In this document: positions 571 through 34,296 of the stretch, piece by piece | Numbering within the stretch: the first letter of the stretch is position 1 | How the letters are laid out: each line of letters begins with the position of its first letter | DNA from: a virus | Lineage: Duplodnaviria > Caudoviricetes | Length of the DNA: 57,321 nt | Virus record (IMG/VR): IMGVR_UViG_3300038478_000018 | Coordinates: 1-57,321 of that record | Direction: 5' to 3' (one strand) | Notes under the pieces: generated by a model | Seen by the model: only the letters and a program-made list of their open reading frames with translations | The model's database searches: none | Told to the model about the DNA's origin: nothing | Program-made: the position numbers and the translations under genes

Positions 571-1933
571 TCATCCTTCGGGCACGCGCCCGCTTTAATG
601 CAGCTTCAACTGATATCTTCCCTTCATTGCTCGCAATTACATCGCTCTCTATAGTCCCCGCTGCGCTGATATCCCAGATCCTGACCACTCGTTTATAGCC
701 GGCCTGCGCTTGACGCGCGGGGCCGCAGCGCTCGATCATCTGCTGACGTAGCTCCGCGTTCCACACGTAACTATAAAAAACAATATCTCTCCCTCCCCGG
801 TGTAGTGATATCCCATAAGCCGACTGTTCGTGTAGAAGGAGAAGTTTGATCCTACCGGCGTTGAAGTCTTCCTGTTCACGGCTACCGTTATACGCGACGG
901 CTCCTGGAAACGCTTGAATAATTCGCTCTTTATCAAAGCGCCACCAGTAAGTGACAATGAGCGGTTCATCCCCCGTCTGCTCGATAATGTCAGCAAGGGC
1001 CTCAACTTTCGCATCGTGTACGTGATGCGCGGTTCCAGTATCGTCATATACGCTCCCCGAGCACATTTGCAGCAGCTTGAAACTCTTCGCGGCGGCGGTG
1101 CCTGCCTCTATGTCCTTATCATTCAGCGACAGAAAGTAGTCCTTCTCCATCGCGTCGTATTGCTCTCGTGCTTTCAAGGGCATCTTAAACGCAATTGGGA
1201 TCACTTGAGGGCACAAAACATCTAGCCAGTCCTCAACCCTGAAAGCAACCATGCGATCAGATACCGCCTCGTGGATACGCTTCTCGGCGCCGTACTGCAT
1301 CGTGATCTTGTGCGTGTACTCATTTTCGATGAAGTTCTGCTGCATGAAGTGCGTGTACGTGCGGCCAAGGCGTTCTCCGTAATCTATAAACCACATCTGG
1401 CCCCAAAGATCCTGCAGGCCGTTCGGTGTCGGTGTGCCCGTGAGGTTCCACCAGCGCTCAGTGTGCTTCGCTATCTTGGCAAGCGCGCCTGCGCGCACGC
1501 CGCCTTTGTTGAGGCGGAAGGACTTGAGCTTGGAGCACTCATCAGCTATTACGGTCTTGAAGGGCCATGGCCGATTACCAAATTGATTCACGAGCCACTG
1601 CACGTTCTCGTAGTTTATGACATAAACACCCGCGGGCTTCTCCAGCGCCTGAAGGCGCTCTCGCTGATTGCCTAGGATCTTCACCACTTGAATATGCTTG
1701 AATTCTTCCCATTTCTCTTGCTCGCCGGTCCACACTACATCTGCCACACGCTTGGGCGCGAGCACCAGGGCGGGGAAATAGTTGGAACCAGCGAGCATCA
1801 AAAGATCCAAAGCAGAAAACACCATAGATGTCTTGCCCAAGCCGGGGTCCGCGACCAACATGCAACGCTTATGGTCTATCAGGAACTTAGTTCCGAGGCG
1901 CTGGTACGGGTGCGGTGTGAAATGCTCAGTCAC
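554..1933 (-). CDS. SNF2-like superfamily 2 helicase
   Basis: PGLGKT Walker A, IADECS motif II, LTGTP motif III; follows VRR-NUC gene. Confidence 0.92.
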   Translation of the reverse strand: MTEHFTPHPYQRLGTKFLIDHKRCMLVADPGLGKTSMVFSALDLLMLAGSNYFPALVLAPKRVADVVWTGEQEKWEEFKHIQVVKILGNQRERLQALEKPAGVYVINYENVQWLVNQFGNRPWPFKTVIADECSKLKSFRLNKGGVRAGALAKIAKHTERWWNLTGTPTPNGLQDLWGQMWFIDYGERLGRTYTHFMQQNFIENEYTHKITMQYGAEKRIHEAVSDRMVAFRVEDWLDVLCPQVIPIAFKMPLKAREQYDAMEKDYFLSLNDKDIEAGTAAAKSFKLLQMCSGSVYDDTGTAHHVHDAKVEALADIIEQTGDEPLIVTYWWRFDKERIIQAFPGAVAYNGSREQEDFNAGRIKLLLLHEQSAYGISLHRGGRDIVFYSYVWNAELRQQMIERCGPARQAQAGYKRVVRIWDISAAGTIESDVIASNEGKISVEAALKRARARRMNDGTA

Positions 1934-2225
1934 GTTCGTATTTAACCCGCATCTTGATCATAAACAAAGTTACCTCTTCCAAGCTCCGCACCACGTACAC
2001 GTCCATGCCGCGCTTGCGCCACCAGTCATGTCGGCGCAACTGGTGCGGCTCAGGCTCAACATCTTCAGCCCACTTCGTCTCCACCAGGCACTGATAGCGG
2101 GAAGGAAAGCTGAGTAGCCGATCCGGCTCCCCCCTCACTGTACCCCGGAACTTCGCACACGCTCCCCCCACCGCCTCCACCCGCTTCTGGAGAAAGCGTT
2201 CCACTTTGTTTTCCCGCTGCGCCAT
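1926..2225 (-). CDS. VRR-NUC domain nuclease
   Basis: RENKVE...GEPDRL...LVETK...PHQ PD-(D/E)xK pattern; usual position before SNF2 helicase. Confidence 0.88.
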   Translation of the reverse strand: MAQRENKVERFLQKRVEAVGGACAKFRGTVRGEPDRLLSFPSRYQCLVETKWAEDVEPEPHQLRRHDWWRKRGMDVYVVRSLEEVTLFMIKMRVKYERD

Positions 2226-2421
2226 ATTGACTATCCTTGATTCCTATCACCTCTTGCCCGAACTGCGCGCACCCCTGCATCCACGCTTCGGCTTCCGAGC
2301 GATCAGCGAAGGAGGCGACCCATACATCCTCGAGCTTGCCGCCGAAAATATGCTGTGGCGAAGTATCGGATTCGGCTTTAACAACGAAAGTCTTGGGCCA
2401 GACGGGCTCATAGGAACTCAC
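2065..2421 (-). CDS. Hypothetical protein
   Basis: Start overlaps upstream stop; last ~160 nt overlap VRR-NUC, so the 3' end is uncertain. Confidence 0.45.
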   Translation of the reverse strand: MSSYEPVWPKTFVVKAESDTSPQHIFGGKLEDVWVASFADRSEAEAWMQGCAQFGQEVIGIKDSQYGAAGKQSGTLSPEAGGGGGGSVCEVPGYSEGGAGSATQLSFPLSVPGGDEVG

Positions 2422-2621
2422 GTATTAGCCCCCTTACTTAGTTCAGCCAAAAGCGCGTCCGCGAACGCTACCGCACGAGCGGCCGCCTCTTTAGGCGTAT
2501 AACCTATGTTGATCTGCGGTGCGATAAAGCGACACGCGAAGTATTCGCGTTTTGAAAGCCCGTAGGCGTACATCCCCACATGTAATATAGGGAACGCAGC
2601 ATGATCATAGTTATGGCTCAT
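2418..2621 (-). CDS. Small phage protein (AFP...GLSKREYFA family)
   Basis: Recurrent phage motif; ATGA coupling. Confidence 0.7.
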   Translation of the reverse strand: MSHNYDHAAFPILHVGMYAYGLSKREYFACRFIAPQINIGYTPKEAAARAVAFADALLAELSKGANT

Positions 2622-2827
2622 ATAAGATCCTCGTTTCCCTTGACGCTCTCGTGGCGCAGAATCCGGCCGTCACGGTCGGTGACGGGATATTCATCGGCGA
2701 GTGCCAAGTTGGGCCAGTGCAGCTCGGCGCCGTTGCGGGGCGTAATGTCGCGCGTCCGCCCCAATGCCGTAGTTTGACTGTCGTCAAAGATGTTAATATC
2801 CTGTTTCGTTAGATTCTGTACACTCAT
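2618..2827 (-). CDS. Hypothetical protein
   Basis: Coupled to polymerase stop, GGAGG SD. Confidence 0.6.
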   Translation of the reverse strand: MSVQNLTKQDINIFDDSQTTALGRTRDITPRNGAELHWPNLALADEYPVTDRDGRILRHESVKGNEDLI

Positions 2828-5067
2828 TTACCCTCCCGCTTACCATACCTTGGGAAATTCCACGCATCCGCCGCCAGCGGTAGACCATCGGACCACGGAA
2901 ACGGAGCCGTCATTATTTTCTTCAAGCGCTCCGGCGAATAGCTGCCAATCGGCAGATCAAGCACGATCTCATCATGAACGCAGAGACTTATCGCTGTACG
3001 TTCGTTCTCCGGTAGAGTCTGTAGATACCGAAGCACTTCAGGCACCAGAAGCGTATCCATGTGCACTCGGTCCTTTGCCCAACGTAGCACGTCATGTGCG
3101 GTCGCTTGAACTATGTTCTCAAGCCACAGGCCGCTCCACGCCTTCTCGCGCCGCCAGTTCTTGCCGCGCGCGGTGATATAGGTAACAGTCTCGCGCTTAT
3201 GGATCTTCTTGACCGTGATGTCCTCATCCGGCTCATGCGTAACTTCTATCCGAGGTGATGCGTACATAAGCCGCCGGCCGCTAGGTAACTCGATTATGAG
3301 CCACTTGCCCGTGCACCACACCTTGCAGCGGCCAACAGAATACGCTATTTGGTTCGGTGCTTCGATAGAGTTACGTACCGCGGCGTCAATGTCATGCCTG
3401 AGCTGGTTTATTTTGCCGTTGGATTCGCGGTACGTTTGTTTGAGGACATCGCACGCTTGGTAGACTTTCGGTTCTAGGCCGAAGTCATTGCCTGAGATGA
3501 AAGCCCTTCGCCACATTTGATACGCCTTCTTCTTTTGGGCTTCTGTGGCACGCGGTAGCACGATGTCAGCGAGAGGGGTTAAATCCATTTGGTAGAGCGC
3601 GGCCGTAGCAACAAGCGCGCCGCAGCCCCCGCCAAAACCGAAACCGAGTTCTGCGGCCTTCCCGGACTGACGCTCTGTATCGTTTACATCAGCAATAGCG
3701 GTTCCAAAGAATTGCGAGAAAAGGAGTTTGTAGAGATCGTATCCTGTACCCCTATCATTAGCTCTATAAGCCTCTAACTTCCATTCCTCCCCCGCAAGCC
3801 ACGCAAGAACGCGGCTTTCAATGTTCTTCCAATCCGCAACCACAAGCTCATTGCCGGGGGCCGCTGTAATGACGTGTCGTAGAGCAAGCGCGCACGCTTC
3901 GTTAGGCCCACCGTAAACGAGTGGATTGCAAAGGGCAGCATGACTGTATATTCCGGGTATAATGACAGAATCAATGTAGTCTGCTTTGACTGGTGAGAGC
4001 TCGATCCGCCCATCCTCGCGACGCACGTTGAGCACAGGTCTAGCGAGATTTTGAGGTTGGAATCCTCGTCCAGAATCTCTACCAGTGCGACCGGCTCCGT
4101 TGAACTGGATAGTATGTCGCTGTCGGTTGCCTGGGCCCAACACTTTAAGCCCGCGTGTATACTTTGAGCCAGACGATTTAGATGCTTCAAGACGTTGCTC
4201 CAATAATAGGCGCGCTATGGGGTTTAAGTCATCATGCTCTAGCCACTCGCGCACCTCGCTAGCGCGCAGGTTCTCAATCTCTAAGCCATGTTTCTCGCGC
4301 AAGTAGTGCAGCAGACGGTTCCGCTGGGTCGCCGCGTGCACCTCGCCGGCCGATAGCGCGCTCATGTTGGCGTCGCTTTCGGTCTTTGCGAGCTTTAGGA
4401 ACTCTACGGCCGCGGCGGCTAATCGAGCGTCGAAACCGAAGCCCCGCTCATTTATGATCTGGTCCAAGTGATACGCGCGAAGGTTAAGCCCTTGGTAGTT
4501 GCACTGCGGGAGGCGCTTGTAGATTTCTCGAAGCGTGTGCGTATCCTGCATCGCATAGCGCGTGAAGGCCGCCCACTTCTCTGGGGTCTGCCAAGGCTCT
4601 ACGTACACGCCATTCCCGTTAGGGCTACAGAATAAATCAATTAGGTGCTTATCTTCTGCGCGCTTCTGGTCCGCTTCCTCAAGCCCCGACACGATCCCCA
4701 GTAGCTCGAGCGAGCCCGGTAGGCCGGCTGTGTAGGCTTGGGACCGTGTACAGCGCCAGCGTGAGAGCGGGATGTGAATCTTAAGGCTTCGTTGCAGCGC
4801 TAGACGGTCAAAGACAGCTGAGTGTGCGACGAAAATAACGTCAGGATTGGCGACGGCCACGGCAAAATCCGCGGGGGTTGCCGGATCTTGCCATGGCTCC
4901 CAAAGCTGCACCGGCTCATCGTGCCATACCCCATCAATGCATTTAGAGAATGCGTATGTGACTATTCGCACTTCGCAGGCGCGCGAATATAGATCCGTGC
5001 CGGCGCTAATATCTACAGCACTGCGCGTTTCCGTGTCGCACATGCAATACTTAGTCACGCGGCGCAA
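2824..5067 (-). CDS. polA: Family A DNA polymerase with 3'-5' exonuclease
   Basis: CDTETRS ExoI, AHSAVFD ExoII, ADWKNIESRVLAW motif A, RQSGKAAELGFGFG motif B, VHDE motif C. Confidence 0.95.
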   Translation of the reverse strand: MRRVTKYCMCDTETRSAVDISAGTDLYSRACEVRIVTYAFSKCIDGVWHDEPVQLWEPWQDPATPADFAVAVANPDVIFVAHSAVFDRLALQRSLKIHIPLSRWRCTRSQAYTAGLPGSLELLGIVSGLEEADQKRAEDKHLIDLFCSPNGNGVYVEPWQTPEKWAAFTRYAMQDTHTLREIYKRLPQCNYQGLNLRAYHLDQIINERGFGFDARLAAAAVEFLKLAKTESDANMSALSAGEVHAATQRNRLLHYLREKHGLEIENLRASEVREWLEHDDLNPIARLLLEQRLEASKSSGSKYTRGLKVLGPGNRQRHTIQFNGAGRTGRDSGRGFQPQNLARPVLNVRREDGRIELSPVKADYIDSVIIPGIYSHAALCNPLVYGGPNEACALALRHVITAAPGNELVVADWKNIESRVLAWLAGEEWKLEAYRANDRGTGYDLYKLLFSQFFGTAIADVNDTERQSGKAAELGFGFGGGCGALVATAALYQMDLTPLADIVLPRATEAQKKKAYQMWRRAFISGNDFGLEPKVYQACDVLKQTYRESNGKINQLRHDIDAAVRNSIEAPNQIAYSVGRCKVWCTGKWLIIELPSGRRLMYASPRIEVTHEPDEDITVKKIHKRETVTYITARGKNWRREKAWSGLWLENIVQATAHDVLRWAKDRVHMDTLLVPEVLRYLQTLPENERTAISLCVHDEIVLDLPIGSYSPERLKKIMTAPFPWSDGLPLAADAWNFPRYGKREGK

Positions 5068-30552: not shown

Positions 30553-31055
30553 AGCTGTCACCGGAGCTGCAGGAAGTTGGACGGCGGGTGCGTGTGCTAC
30601 GCGATCGCGTACTAATTAAACCGCTGCCGTATGTAAATGCTGTATTGCTAACGCCAGGCGTCAACATCCAAAAAGGCGTGGTAGTCTCTGTCGGCTACGG
30701 TCGACGCGAGCGGCGCAAAGTGCGCTTTGATCGCATGGAAGGCCATTTGAGCACCGGGCGATCTTTATATTACGAGGACGGCGAAGAGTTAGGGCGCATA
30801 GCGCCAATGCGCGTCTCTGTTGGGGACGTGGTTGAATTTTCGCCCAGGAGTGTATTTGTCATCTTTGAACACGATTTGTTGCAAGCAGGCTTGCCAGACG
30901 TTGGTGATCTGCTCATGGTTTGGCAAGCAGGGATCATGACGATTGACCCTGATGAGTCTTTGAGCGACGCGCTCATGTGGCAACAGCCCGCGGGCTACGA
31001 CAAAGACGGCAACTTCATGAGCGGCAAAGAAGAATGGCAACGTACCCAGAGCTAA
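30549..31055 (+). CDS. groES: Divergent GroES-like protein 2
   Basis: LRDRVLIKP...GVVVSVGYG...PMRVSVGDVVEF with long insertion and C-terminal extension. Confidence 0.7.
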   Translation: MKLSPELQEVGRRVRVLRDRVLIKPLPYVNAVLLTPGVNIQKGVVVSVGYGRRERRKVRFDRMEGHLSTGRSLYYEDGEELGRIAPMRVSVGDVVEFSPRSVFVIFEHDLLQAGLPDVGDLLMVWQAGIMTIDPDESLSDALMWQQPAGYDKDGNFMSGKEEWQRTQS

Positions 31056-32080
31056 ACGAACGGGAGTTGGCTCTGATTGCCCCGCTTTCGAAAGACGGGA
31101 AGCCAGATTTCTTTAACTATCTACCCACAAGATTCGTCCCGCTGGACGAAGCGAAGGCCCGCGGGTGGGCGTGGTTTTACGTAGGCGATGTGTGCTCACA
31201 CGGACATAAGGCGGCTCGCTATGTCAGTAATACAAGGTACTGCGTGGATTGTCGCAGGATTAAAGCCGGGCTGCAACCCATTGGCGGCAAGGGGGTGGCG
31301 GAGTACACCAACCGCCCGCGCGCGTATTCGCAGCCCGCTCCGCGATCCAGTGCCGGCGAGTCTGCTGCCCCGCCTCGTCCTTTGCAGCCTGATGCTTCAG
31401 AAAAGAAGTTTCTCGTGGCCTATGCCCGCCTCAAGGACTTTGCGGCCGCCGCGCGCGAGGTCGGGACGGATGATGCAGTCTTTCGAGCGCGATTAAGCTA
31501 CTCGAAGGTGTTTAAAGATGCCGTAAATGCGCTCGAAGAGCAGTTAGGCATGACACATACGGCAAAATTAGACGAGGATTTTGACTGGACCGAAGACAAG
31601 CGCGCTGTTTTGGTCCGTGTTTACATCGACACGGGTGATTTAGGGCTAGCGCGCGATGCAATTCAGGTGTCTAACTACCATTTTCAGCGCGAGTTGCAGG
31701 ATAATGGCGAATTTGCGTCGATGTTAGCTGATGCTGAGCCGCTCGCTAACCGAATTTTAGACGAGCACGCGATTCGTAAGGCGAAAAACGGCGATTCCAG
31801 GTTGTTAGATCGCGTTTTGACGGCAAAACTGCCTGAGTATAGTCCAAAAGTTCGAATGGACGTAAACGTCACCGAGAAATTAACCGATGACCAAATCAAC
31901 GCCCGATTCAACCAAGTCCTCAAGCAACTCATCGTCCTCGGAGGAGAAAAATACCTCTTACCTGACGCAGTTGACGCGGAATTTTCAGAACCTGGATCGC
32001 CGGACGAAGCTGAAGATGCTGGAAACAGTAGCGGCGAAAGTCCGCTACATGAGTCAGCACAAAATCTCGATCTACTTTGA
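31034..32080 (+). CDS. terS: Probable terminase small subunit with N-terminal Zn finger and tandem HTH repeats
   Basis: Directly before TerL; CSHGH...CVDC; two HTH-like repeats; GDSRLL...LPEY. Confidence 0.6.
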   Translation: MATYPELNERELALIAPLSKDGKPDFFNYLPTRFVPLDEAKARGWAWFYVGDVCSHGHKAARYVSNTRYCVDCRRIKAGLQPIGGKGVAEYTNRPRAYSQPAPRSSAGESAAPPRPLQPDASEKKFLVAYARLKDFAAAAREVGTDDAVFRARLSYSKVFKDAVNALEEQLGMTHTAKLDEDFDWTEDKRAVLVRVYIDTGDLGLARDAIQVSNYHFQRELQDNGEFASMLADAEPLANRILDEHAIRKAKNGDSRLLDRVLTAKLPEYSPKVRMDVNVTEKLTDDQINARFNQVLKQLIVLGGEKYLLPDAVDAEFSEPGSPDEAEDAGNSSGESPLHESAQNLDLL

Positions 32081-33554
32081 TTCGCCAGAGGTTCGCGCAT
32101 CGTATCCTAAGCAGATACAGTGGTTCGCTCTAAGCAAAGAGCATCAAGAAACAGCCCTCTTTGGCGGTAATCGTTGCCTCACACCGTGGACGGTAATACC
32201 CACGGATCGCGGTGAGCGCCAAGTTCACGAAGTTTGCGGCGAGGAATCATTCGGTGTTCAGGCGTGGGACGGTGCGACTCGACGAAGTGCGCAATCAACA
32301 GGCGTGTTTCTAAAGGGCATTGAGCCAGCGTTTCGGATTCATCTGGACAACGGAGAAGTTTTTGAGTGCTCCGGTAAGCACCGGGTATTAACCAGCGCTG
32401 GCTGGCGGCCCATTTACCGGTTAGTTCATAGCGCAGGTGTTCTGCATTGGACGAGAACACCGTCAGGTTGGAAGGCCAGTTGTGGCGTGGATGACTGTCT
32501 TCGTGGTTCACTACCTCGATCGGTAGCAGATAACGTTTATGCACTACTTCGGCAACAACGCGATGCTCCCAGCAACGCCCTGAATTGTTTGCTCGAGGGT
32601 GTAACGGCATCCAGACCTGAACATAACCGTATTTATCGTAGGTTCGACCTCCGACCCATTCAGGGTGGCCGGAACCCGGTTTTGGACCGGTACGGCATTT
32701 CGGAATGGGCAGCCCCAGTAAATCGGCCCAACGCCTTACCGAAGTTTCCGGAATGCCTGTTTGACGGCATATCTCATTTAGATAAATGCCAGCGCGTAGC
32801 AGAGTGGCAATTTGCCGTTTTGCAGCAGTCACCTCATCTGGAGAACGTCTGTATACCATGCGAACCTCTACTCGTATTCGGGGGTAACACTATACTAGTG
32901 GTAGAGGATATAGGTTGTCAACCTATAATTGATTTCGAGGTGCCGGGGCCTCACAACTATGTGGCAGCCGGGGCGATTCACCATAATAGCGGTAAGACGG
33001 TGGCAGGCACATACGCGGACACCGTTCATTTAACTGGCCAATACCCTAGCTGGTGGCCGGGCCATAGATTTGACAGACCTACCGAAGTGTGGGCCGCGAG
33101 TGATACCGGCAAGAGTACGCGCGACATTTTGCAGAGCACTCTTTGTGGGAAGTACGGCGATGAGTCCGCCCGCGGCACCGGAATGATACCGGGGGATCTA
33201 ATCCTGCGGACCACGGTGAAGCACGGTATTCCCGACGCGTATGAAACCGTATACGTGCGGCATGTGCCGACTGGCGGAGTCTCTACGCTTCAGTTCAAGA
33301 GTTATGATCAGGGCCGGGAGGCGTTTCAAGGGACGGCCCAAGATGTGGTCCACCTAGATGAGGAACCGTCAATCGAGATATACACGGAATGCCTCTTGCG
33401 ACTTATGACGCGGGACGGAAGGTTGTTACTAACAGCCACGCCGTTGCGCGGAGTTACTCAGTTGATGCTTCAGTATATGCCATCACTGGCTCCTACGCCG
33501 ATGGAAGATTTGGAAGAGAACTACGATGAAGAAGAGGCGGCCGTAGATGAGTAA
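31887..33554 (+). CDS. terL: Terminase large subunit, ATPase part (P22-like), intein-containing
   Basis: GGNR|SGKT Walker A split by intein; FKSYDQGREAFQG, HLDEEP, TATP; start codon uncertain. Confidence 0.92.
   Translation: MTKSTPDSTKSSSNSSSSEEKNTSYLTQLTRNFQNLDRRTKLKMLETVAAKVRYMSQHKISIYFDSPEVRASYPKQIQWFALSKEHQETALFGGNRCLTPWTVIPTDRGERQVHEVCGEESFGVQAWDGATRRSAQSTGVFLKGIEPAFRIHLDNGEVFECSGKHRVLTSAGWRPIYRLVHSAGVLHWTRTPSGWKASCGVDDCLRGSLPRSVADNVYALLRQQRDAPSNALNCLLEGVTASRPEHNRIYRRFDLRPIQGGRNPVLDRYGISEWAAPVNRPNALPKFPECLFDGISHLDKCQRVAEWQFAVLQQSPHLENVCIPCEPLLVFGGNTILVVEDIGCQPIIDFEVPGPHNYVAAGAIHHNSGKTVAGTYADTVHLTGQYPSWWPGHRFDRPTEVWAASDTGKSTRDILQSTLCGKYGDESARGTGMIPGDLILRTTVKHGIPDAYETVYVRHVPTGGVSTLQFKSYDQGREAFQGTAQDVVHLDEEPSIEIYTECLLRLMTRDGRLLLTATPLRGVTQLMLQYMPSLAPTPMEDLEENYDEEEAAVDE
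32179..32859 (-). CDS. HTH-HNH homing endonuclease encoded antisense inside the intein
   Basis: LNEICRQTGIPETSVRRW HTH; W.GGR...GYV....P.HP.A...EHRVVAE...EVVNHEDSHPRHNWPSNL...EH; AGAGGT SD. Confidence 0.88.
   Translation of the reverse strand: MVYRRSPDEVTAAKRQIATLLRAGIYLNEICRQTGIPETSVRRWADLLGLPIPKCRTGPKPGSGHPEWVGGRTYDKYGYVQVWMPLHPRANNSGRCWEHRVVAEVVHKRYLLPIEVVNHEDSHPRHNWPSNLTVFSSNAEHLRYELTGKWAASQRWLIPGAYRSTQKLLRCPDESETLAQCPLETRLLIAHFVESHRPTPEHRMIPRRKLRELGAHRDPWVLPSTV
32892..32927 (-). promoter_or_regulatory. Antisense promoter and palindromic operator for the HNH gene
   Basis: TTGACA (32921-32916)-18-TAGTAT (32897-32892); TATAGGTTG-T-CAACCTATA at 32909-32927. Confidence 0.7.
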
Positions 33555-34296
33555 GGCGGCCGTTATGGTCGGCTGGCGAGATGTGCCGCACCTATCTGAA
33601 GAACAGAAGAAATCCATTCTGTCCGGTATCCCGCCGTGGCAACGTCAGGCAAGAACGCTCGGCTTGCCGTCTATAGGTTCAGGGGCAGTTTATCCGCTTG
33701 ACGAAAGCGAAATAGTTATCACACCCTTCGAGATCCCGCACCATTGGGCTAGAGGGTACGGCTTCGATACCGGCTGGAATCGTACCGCGGCTATATTTAT
33801 GGCACGCGACCCCGATTCGGGCGGTTGGGTAGCGTATAAAGAATACTACCGTGGCAAAGTAGACCCGGCCATCCACGTGCGGGGCTTGAAGCAATTGGGC
33901 GCGGATTGGATGACGGGCGTTATAGACCCCGCAAGCCGCGGTCAGCGCGGATTGGCCGGCGAGAAGCTGCTAGATGTGTACCGCGAGATGGGGCTGAACC
34001 TCGAGTTAGCCGATAACGCGGTAGGTGCCGGCATCACAATGGTGTGGGACTGGCTCTCGACGGGGAAGCTTAAGCTTTTCTCCAACCTTTCTAATACGCT
34101 TGCGGAGTTTAGACTCTACCAGCGGGATGAGAAAGGCAACATCGTGAAGACTAATGATCACCTTATGGACGCATTGCGTTACGCCGTGATGAGCCTCATG
34201 ACCGAAGAGCATAATTATCTGAAAACGGCGCCCGCAGGCAGTGCTAGCGGATCGCCTTGGTTTTCTTGGACACCGCCGCCCGTTTGGAGCGGCTGA
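33547..34296 (+). CDS. terL: Terminase large subunit, nuclease part (separate gene)
   Basis: WRDVPHL...GSGAVYP...GFDTGWN...DHLMDALRYA. Confidence 0.9.
   Translation: MSKAAVMVGWRDVPHLSEEQKKSILSGIPPWQRQARTLGLPSIGSGAVYPLDESEIVITPFEIPHHWARGYGFDTGWNRTAAIFMARDPDSGGWVAYKEYYRGKVDPAIHVRGLKQLGADWMTGVIDPASRGQRGLAGEKLLDVYREMGLNLELADNAVGAGITMVWDWLSTGKLKLFSNLSNTLAEFRLYQRDEKGNIVKTNDHLMDALRYAVMSLMTEEHNYLKTAPAGSASGSPWFSWTPPPVWSG

Follow-up and report, generated by a model that had tools for sequence, protein, structure and literature searches.

An intein that appears to carry its homing endonuclease as a separate gene on the opposite strand interrupts the large terminase (TerL) gene of a tailed phage (Duplodnaviria; Caudoviricetes), IMG/VR record IMGVR_UViG_3300038478_000018. 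We call the whole 57,321-nt stretch of DNA analysed the window; it is ~99% complete, with early and replication genes on the minus strand at its left and a structural module on the plus strand at its right. The packaging module contains an open reading frame (ORF) for the TerL ATPase (31887-33554, plus strand, 555 codons), of which aa 368-530 match Pfam Terminase_6N. This ORF is interrupted by an insert of 271 codons (32175-32987) whose first residue is Cys and whose last three are His-His-Asn, with Ser as the next residue. The insert divides a Walker A motif, leaving one half in each flank, ...LFGGNR and SGKT... (GGNR/SGKT, the slash marking the insertion site). Nested entirely within the insert, a minus-strand ORF of 226 aa (32179-32859) has its stop codon starting 4 nt inside the 5' end of the insert and its ATG 128 nt inside the 3' end. 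Both the nesting and the 4-nt offset agree with the initial annotation of this DNA, which had been made from the sequence alone.

Relatives of TerL define the insert. Among the 80 closest C-extein relatives in IMG/VR, 76 have an uninterrupted GGNR/[ST]GKT site, including L055 and L056 at 88-89% protein identity, and the remaining four, which lie on the contigs of loci L001-L004, carry the insert, so that the intein boundaries are exact and its occurrence patchy. This bears out the 271-aa intein that the initial annotation had placed within Walker A. The splicing blocks it had described as intact are likewise borne out, with C1, H69 (block B), D253, H270 and N271 unchanged in 32 of 32 intein sequences. 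Of 52 sequences examined, including the window, a boundary regular expression located both intein ends in 43 loci, and in each of these S, T or C follows the intein. A profile built from 32 related inteins matches solved DnaB, RecA, DnaX and DnaE inteins, with hits to DnaB inteins 4o1r (E = 2e-13) and 1mi8 (2e-11), to PI-MtuI (2in9; 3e-6) and to the C-terminus of the Spl DnaX mini-intein (7cfv; 2e-4). Pfam Intein_splicing matches the last 21 intein residues only, at E = 6e-4 and below its cut-off, and an NCBIfam search added only a DnaB-intein region match. An AlphaFold2 (AF2) model computed from the 32-sequence alignment has a beta-rich fold, with predicted local distance difference test (pLDDT) scores of 80-95 at aa 1-105 and 225-271, consistent with a Hint domain. 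The score drops below 50 at aa 106-166 and is ~74-83 for a helix at aa 201-217. The plus-frame middle of the intein has no Pfam or PHROG domain match, in agreement with the earlier reading that the intein frame holds no endonuclease motif. These similarities point to a class-1 intein for which protein splicing activity is predicted.

The minus-strand ORF, by contrast with the intein middle, has recognizable nuclease relatives and is predicted to encode an endonuclease with a helix-turn-helix (HTH) and an HNH domain. Ten PHROG families named HNH endonuclease match it at E <=0.1, seven of them below 1e-3; the best matches cover aa 58-149 (phrog_20891, E = 2.4e-15, and the next at 1.9e-14), and the weakest has an E of 0.097. 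The N-terminal HTH noted in the initial annotation corresponds to a weak HTH_23 match at aa 13-45, whose E of 9e-4 does not reach the Pfam cut-off. Across 28 homologues, HTH_23 matches 25 and HNH_3 matches 14 (best E 1.8e-6), and residues H99, H119, D121, N127, N131, N138 and H141 are unchanged in all 28. Annotated free-standing HNH endonucleases of GenBank phages align, by tblastn, to aa 25-150 only. The AF2 model of the ORF has a mean pLDDT of 86.9 and places strands at aa 116-119 and 132-135 ahead of a helix at aa 138-148. Table 1 collects the features of the locus.

Table 1. Features of the interrupted TerL locus, in window coordinates, with the evidence for each.
Feature	Position	Strand	Evidence
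TerL N-extein, ending in the first Walker A half (..LFGGNR)	31887..32174	+	ORF, relatives
Predicted class-1 intein, 271 aa: C1, block-B His69, Asp253, His270-Asn271, +1 Ser	32175..32987	+	Invariant columns, AF2, profile
Hint-N subdomain, ~aa 1-102; AF2 pLDDT 80-94; dual-coded with the HNH tail	32175..32480	+	AF2, profile, codon diversity, pN/pS
Stop-free linker in the usual endonuclease slot, ~aa 103-228; largely disordered in AF2	32481..32858	+	pN/pS, AF2
Hint-C subdomain, ~aa 229-271; also holds the minus-gene promoter-like site and SD-like sequence	32859..32987	+	pN/pS, AF2
TerL C-extein: SGKT and remaining ATPase domain (Terminase_6N)	32988..33554	+	Pfam, relatives
TerL nuclease domain (Terminase_6C), separate ORF; context, outside the element	33547..34296	+	Pfam, PHROG
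Predicted HTH+HNH endonuclease ORF, 226 aa, stop included, within the intein	32179..32859	-	ORF list, PHROG, homologues, AF2
Helix-turn-helix, N-terminal, aa 13-45	32725..32823	-	HTH_23, AF2
HNH nuclease core, aa 58-149, motif EHR...VNHED...HNWPSNL...NAEH	32413..32688	-	PHROG, homologues
Family-specific C-terminal tail, aa 150-226, antisense to Hint-N blocks, selected	32182..32412	-	Alignment, codon diversity, pN/pS
Promoter-like TTGACA-18-TAGTAT, 32 nt ahead of the HNH start codon	32892..32921	-	Sigma-70-like scan
Shine-Dalgarno (SD)-like AGAGG, 5 nt before ATG 32859	32865..32869	-	Sequence

Both frames stay open over the nested ORF in the staggered register noted earlier, in which the first codon positions of the two frames are opposed and each third position opposes the second position of the other strand. 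Chance rarely produces this arrangement. In 20,000 trials that kept the HNH protein constant and redrew synonymous codons according to codon usage in the window, stops in the intein frame average 6.1 and 0.085% of trials leave it open; with the intein protein fixed, the minus frame is open in 0.1%, so that the probability is ~0.001 each way. Since the plus frame is open over ~125 codons that are otherwise unconstrained, selection for read-through is left as the sole explanation of its openness.

The arrangement is retained among relatives. A scan of IMG/VR with the HNH protein found 51 loci, and the antisense frame is open over the whole match in all 51. A plus-strand-only scan with the motif YxxxGxxHHN, which is confined to the single-coded Hint-C block, found 80 loci. 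Of these, 72 are near-full-length matches, and every one has an intact minus-strand HNH relative, as one open segment in identical register, a count that excludes eight short partial matches (138-246 nt), four without an HNH match and four with a partial one. Pooling the two scans with the window and removing duplicates gave 62 distinct intein DNAs. The plus frame is without stops in 62 of 62, the avoidance of plus-strand stops for which the initial annotation had proposed a test. In every one of them the minus register has an open run of at least 181 codons (median 268), the median longest open runs in four control frames being 47-68 codons, and it stays open down to ~25% intein identity. A scan of metagenome contigs with the HNH protein added 46 loci, 39 of them embedded in inteins; the seven most distant relatives are free-standing and, because their antisense frames are closed, provide a negative control. 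That all loci share one register suggests a single origin.

Two further observations concern these collections of loci. A longer intein class (L144-L178 and others) has inteins of 310-320 aa and nucleases of ~265-275 aa that the HTH part of the profile matches twice, which suggests tandem HTH domains. Separately, L244 and L245 are two copies of the element with equal scores on one 164,428-nt metagenome contig (39515-42811 and 105907-109203), ~66 kb apart, and may reflect a concatemeric assembly of a ~66 kb phage rather than two insertions.

The unbroken plus frame also bears on whether TerL might be a fractured gene, with the plus frame not read across the nuclease region and two separate TerL products that split-intein halves ligate in trans. 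Fractured genes of this kind exist in phage-like environmental DNA and similarly have a nuclease gene of a free-standing type between the N- and C-terminal splicing parts (Dassa et al. 2009, PMC2677866). In the accessible text of that report, however, the host gene has been split between two ORFs, and the GIY-YIG or Vsr-like nuclease lies in the same orientation, whereas here the nuclease is antisense and the plus frame runs without stops through ~125 unconstrained codons in all 62 intein DNAs. We rejected a fractured gene or split intein on this ground and regard it as extremely improbable.

Codon-position nucleotide diversity divides the element into three zones. The analysis covered 33 unique loci, leaving out exact duplicate DNAs and those loci whose intein ends the regular expression did not find (L005, L036, L037, L044-L047, L050 and L051). 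In the exteins and Hint-C (intein aa 226-271), plus position 3 is the most variable, with a diversity of 0.62-0.71. Over intein aa 91-225 the most variable is plus position 2, which is minus position 3 (0.56-0.72), and plus position 3 has its minimum at aa 91-180, the stretch opposite the HNH core (0.24-0.39; 0.50-0.63 at aa 181-225); plus amino-acid diversity over aa 91-225 is 0.67-0.88. Intein aa 1-90 show low diversity at all three codon positions (0.24-0.53). The ratio of nonsynonymous to synonymous differences (pN/pS, Nei-Gojobori proportions for the four closest sequences; figures for 'all 31' omit L048 and L049) follows the same zones. In the middle it is 0.33 for the minus frame and 1.40 for the plus frame, and the plus-frame values for Hint-C and the C-extein are 0.25 and 0.31, with a pS of ~0.74. 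In Hint-N, pS is 0.26 on the plus and 0.33 on the minus strand, and because both are suppressed both strands are constrained there. The middle is thus under minus-strand selection only, Hint-C and the exteins under plus-strand selection only, and Hint-N under both. This outcome of a per-strand selection test on homologous inteins, which the initial annotation had also proposed, favours its interpretation.

These values speak to the idea that the HNH ORF is a decaying relic in an intein now inherited only vertically, its open minus frame reflecting inertia or a side effect of plus-strand constraint. Intein nucleases often decay once fixed, according to the homing-cycle model in the accessible text of a recent preprint (10.1101/2025.01.02.630785), and one register in all loci would fit one old origin. 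Yet selection in the middle acts on the minus and not the plus strand, the HNH motif residues are unchanged in 28 of 28 homologues, and the minus register, which the intein protein would leave open by chance only ~0.1% of the time, is open in 62 of 62 DNAs even where the inteins are ~25% identical. The patchy occurrence, with L054 carrying the intein and L055 and L056 empty, also argues against vertical inheritance alone, and we consider a relic very unlikely. We see similarly little chance that the plus-frame linker (aa ~103-228) is itself a functional domain, which would make the whole 681 nt dual-functional. The AF2 helix at aa 201-217 (pLDDT ~74-83) and a middle minus-frame pS of 0.59, somewhat below saturation, would fit such a domain, but the linker's plus-frame pN/pS of 1.3-1.4, its high amino-acid diversity, its pLDDT below 50 at aa 106-166 and the lack of any Pfam or PHROG domain match count against it.

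The doubly constrained zone is where the C-terminal tail of the nuclease, HNH aa 150-226 (the last 77 residues, about a third of the ORF), overlaps Hint-N aa 3 to ~80. A tail-less sister subfamily of 12 loci provides a comparison. Its HNH ORF stops earlier, the minus register contains 3-8 stops in the first ~63 plus codons, and its Hint-N codons show an ordinary single-coding pattern, with a plus position 3 diversity of 0.62-0.71 (L209 and L211 omitted from this profile). Because single coding is seen where the tail is missing, the suppression in Hint-N in the window's subfamily is attributable to a selected minus-strand tail, and ~230 nt of overlap there encode two selected proteins. The tail is strongly conserved among homologues (RCPDExETLAQCP, ESHRPTxEHR), is helical in AF2 with block-mean pLDDT of 77-95, and is absent from free-standing relatives. 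A search of 1.84 billion representative proteins with the tail alone gave 16 matches at E <=1e-3, of which 13 are the C-termini of 221-278-aa proteins of the same HNH family and three are weak, multi-stretch matches. The Hint-N blocks, being homologous to solved inteins, are ancient.

The simplest reading of this comparison is that the tail arose by overprinting the Hint-N blocks. A fuller scenario, the prospects of which we judge to be evenly balanced, is that the HNH ORF lost its stop and was read antisense through Hint-N, that the extension became a folded and selected domain (for example, for target recognition), and that ~230 nt now encode two functional proteins, with the nuclease promoter in Hint-C codons and the tail-less sister inteins ancestral. 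The initial annotation had treated the antisense reading of the nuclease gene as a mere stop-free loop. This description suits the middle, which is unconstrained on the plus strand, and fails for the last 77 codons, which overlap the N-terminal splicing blocks with both frames selected. Stops in the minus ORF of homologues, which it had named as evidence against itself, show the same division: none interrupt the minus register for at least 181 codons in the 62 intein DNAs, and the tail-less subfamily has its 3-8 stops over the tail stretch.

Presence of the nuclease follows presence of the intein. An HNH relative occurs in four of four intein loci and in none of 76 intein-less TerL loci (365 kb of fetched flanks, six frames). 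The intein is patchy even among close exteins, being found in L054 and missing from L055 and L056 at 88-89% identity. This distribution fits an intein and HNH gene that move as one unit.

The same counts help to weigh an alternative that accepts a genuine, selected HNH protein from the minus strand but sees it as a servant of the phage rather than a homing enzyme, whether as an aid to cos cleavage or packaging, as a weapon against competitors, as an HTH regulator or as an antisense brake on late genes. The ORF does sit in the packaging module, and terminase-linked HNH proteins occur in HK97-like phages. It also has an N-terminal HTH, and its cleavage target is a prediction only. But since none of the 76 closest intein-less TerL loci carries an HNH relative within the fetched flanks, packaging in this clade has no need of one, and we rejected a terminase-associated packaging HNH for the same reason. 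Furthermore, the HNH is always nested in a P-loop intein, including one in a helicase, which fits selfish co-mobility, and its nearest annotated relatives are free-standing genes of the homing type. We regard a phage-serving role as unlikely.

Free-standing HNH genes (for example in Pseudoalteromonas phage PHS3, as Mycobacterium phage Thibault gp148, and at metagenome loci L253 and L257-L262) share a homologous core with the window ORF (aa 62-149, 29-46% identity). Unlike it, they have no C-terminal tail and no surrounding intein, and their antisense frames are closed. Together with the strand-specific selection, the strict co-occurrence and the disordered linker, these relatives support the view, already taken in the initial annotation, of a separate opposite-strand nuclease gene whose antisense reading forms a stop-free linker.

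The intein/antisense-HNH unit occupies several host genes: TerLs of the Terminase_6N type, TerLs of the Terminase_3 type (L008, L041) and a UvrD/RecD-like helicase (L050). The helicase gene (L050:2625-5099, minus strand) encodes AAA_30 and UvrD_C_2 domains, and in L010 and L016 the unit occupies a shifted P-loop position, NRxGK/[ST]. There has apparently been switching of exteins and sites among P-loop NTPases. Hint-N is 48-50% identical to that of the window where identity in the flanks is 15-33% (C-extein) and 13-19% (N-extein), a pattern that fits horizontal spread through nucleotide-binding sites. A co-conversion check of 30 nt on each side of the site gave no signal, with 23/30 for L054, which has the intein, and 25/30 for the empty L055.

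Cultured phages carry the same layout. The HNH core matches the Pectobacterium phages Koroua, Amona, Sabo, Ymer, Abuela, Taid and Pappous of the Ymer genus and the Dickeya phage Setonix. In Koroua (L052, PQ008972.1), a 754-aa 'hypothetical protein' (1071-3335, minus strand) encoded beside the portal gene is TerL, with Terminase_6N and 6C, and contains an intein, FVAGFG/C...HHN/TGKS. An unannotated antisense HTH-HNH ORF of 232 aa (2444-3142, plus strand) lies in the same register as in the window. The words 'intein', 'HNH' and 'homing' occur nowhere in the main text of the paper on this genus (PMC11445585). The viability of cultured Ymer-genus phages with this layout is indirect evidence that such inteins splice. 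For the window itself, examined over 31400-34000, contigs from public reads that are identical to it bridge the 5' junction (X4, 32097-32332) and the 3' junction (X3, 32814-33095; X5, 32872-33022), and all three come from peat metagenomes in three studies distinct from that of the possible source sample.

The anatomy, strand-specific selection, co-distribution and patchy occurrence described above were established computationally. From them we infer splicing, transcription and cleavage activities, as well as homing and descent of the nuclease from an HNH gene that once stood alone. In our favoured interpretation, which we hold with considerable confidence, the TerL P-loop codons contain a composite selfish element: a class-1 intein on the plus strand, with an HTH+HNH gene of its own on the minus strand supplying the homing endonuclease. 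TerL is essential for the phage. The ribosome would translate it straight through the element, after which Hint-N (aa 1-~102) and Hint-C (aa ~229-271) would fold together, with the ~125 residues between them, a stop-free antisense reading of the nuclease gene, acting as a floppy linker. Excision of the intein would then restore GGNR-SGKT. The nuclease would be made from its own start (ATG 32859, SD AGAGG), its promoter probably lying in Hint-C codons and its expression being independent of late TerL. Its targets would be TerL alleles without the intein in co-infecting phages, nicked or cut close to the P-loop codons, and during repair the entire intein and HNH unit would be copied into them.

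Several results weigh against this interpretation or temper it. The 62 of 62 count overstates the number of independent trials, because the loci share ancestry and one register. The middle minus-frame pS of 0.59 is below the single-coded ~0.74, so that some residual plus-strand or nucleotide-level constraint is possible. The nuclease type is a further point. The initial annotation had specified an I-HmuI/HNH_3-type enzyme; PHROG families, homologues and motif agree on HNH, but Pfam HNH_3 gives no match to the window's own minus ORF. Of the HMM and structure searches it had proposed for both frames, the profile search recovered Hint and the PHROG search HNH, whereas Foldseek of the HNH model against the PDB returned weak HTH matches only (best E 0.45) and no HNH structure, and a profile of the minus-ORF family against PDB sequences returned HTH only. 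Because the structural searches returned HTH only, the HNH assignment rests on sequence families and motif and not on structure. Public-read contigs contained no empty allele, though all are low-depth and none is joined across the intein, and this null proves nothing. The sole RNA-library contig, of 151 nt (32005-32155), lies in the N-extein, is strandless and is silent on minus-strand expression.

Expression signals are similarly equivocal. TTGACA-18-TAGTAT is the sole sigma-70-like site in 31900-33300, but shuffles of that interval yield 0.9 promoter-like sites on average, i.e. one is expected. TAnnAT occurs at the matching aligned position in 19 of 33 loci, and the -35 TTG is common to just five of the 33. 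The codon facing TAnnAT is nTA in 22 of 24 Leu/Val/Ile cases, compared with 18% elsewhere (171/947), a count that is uncorrected for the common ancestry of the loci. These patterns give only a hint that an HNH promoter may be embedded in Hint-C codons.

Inteins with antisense nucleases are already in print, so that the architecture, whose novelty the initial annotation had left unverified, is not new in kind. The accessible text of the preprint cited above credits to Gorbalenya 1998 and Gogarten 2002 the antisense LAGLIDADG endonucleases in inteins of Synechocystis DnaX, a Chloroflexus SpoVR-like protein and actinophages (10.1101/2025.01.02.630785). It also describes 'non-canonical' actinophage inteins, including some in TerL, with antisense VSR-like or out-of-frame EndoVII-like endonucleases (Gosselin, Arsenault and Gogarten), proposes that free-standing nuclease genes invade inteins, argues that inteins spread via nucleotide-binding sites, and gives HNH in inteins as in-frame only. 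Our element resembles the antisense-LAGLIDADG inteins in being a contiguous intein with an open plus frame and an opposite-strand endonuclease ORF in the nuclease slot. It differs in its nuclease, an HNH with an HTH, in host gene and phage group, and in a minus ORF that reads on across the N-terminal splicing blocks and stops only 4 nt short of where the intein begins. With the VSR-like and EndoVII-like inteins it shares TerL among the hosts, a nuclease coded in a frame of its own, an in-frame reading that lacks structure, the proposal that the nuclease was once a free-standing gene, and spread via nucleotide-binding sites. Those inteins, as far as the accessible text describes them, 'typically' have the secondary ORF outside the splicing domain, whereas about a third of the ORF here overlaps Hint-N with both frames constrained. 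The opposite-strand ORF in a contiguous intein is therefore common ground with the published antisense-nuclease inteins; its nuclease is neither LAGLIDADG nor VSR-like, and because it is an HNH the element falls outside the described types, as a new variant in which the dual-coding overlap is unusually deep.

I-HmuI-type HNH_3 nicking endonucleases occur in phage introns. These enzymes, and inteins with an HNH domain in frame (Dalgaard et al. 1997, cited via 10.1101/2025.01.02.630785), are like the present element in having an HNH catalytic motif and in their association with self-splicing elements in phage genes. They are unlike it in that an in-frame HNH is a domain of the intein polypeptide and an I-HmuI-type enzyme an ORF of an RNA intron, and neither is known as an antisense gene over protein-splicing codons. 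A full-text literature search that did not extend to the preprint's supplementary tables, which may list cases, or to the 1998 paper turned up no intein described with an HNH gene on its antisense strand; PMC6669764, promising by its terms, proved unrelated, and PMC8966425 uses 'opposite strand' in another sense. The antisense nuclease layout is thus published for LAGLIDADG and VSR-like enzymes, and the HNH+HTH version is apparently not previously described.

With this element, HNH with HTH becomes the fourth nuclease family on the short list of inteins that leave homing to a distinct gene read in a different frame. With 62 distinct intein DNAs in two TerL families and a helicase, the layout represents a large, old and well-kept lineage and no rare accident. 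It offers unusually clean comparative evidence for intein evolution in which splicing comes first and a free-standing nuclease invades later, and its tail-less and tail-bearing subfamilies form a natural before/after pair for the birth of a protein segment by overprinting a constrained domain in antisense. The minus ORF escapes gene callers, and the TerL of GenBank Pectobacterium phages is labelled hypothetical. Because those phages are in culture, their splicing, the timing of expression and homing are open to direct experiment.

Other observations concern the host and the surrounding genes. The DNA has no blastn match among GenBank phages, and a search of genome contigs found two loci only, in a Burkholderiales metagenome-assembled genome (MAG) and, as a weak match, in an archaeal MAG, too few to name a host. 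The TerL start is uncertain, with candidate ATGs at 31887, 32019 and 32052. An ORF of 367 aa (30977-32080, plus strand), which has no NCBIfam match, extends 194 nt into the TerL ORF if that is counted from ATG 31887; it may encode the small terminase, and TerL may start later than 31887, at ATG 32019 or 32052. Downstream, the TerL ATPase and nuclease ORFs (31887-33554 and 33547-34296) overlap by 8 nt, ATGAGTAA, at 33547-33554. The ATPase ORF ends 172-205 aa past the P-loop in 78 of the 80 closest relatives, L071 and L075 alone continuing to 425 aa, and the division of TerL into two ORFs represents either a genuine two-piece large terminase or a conserved recoding site.

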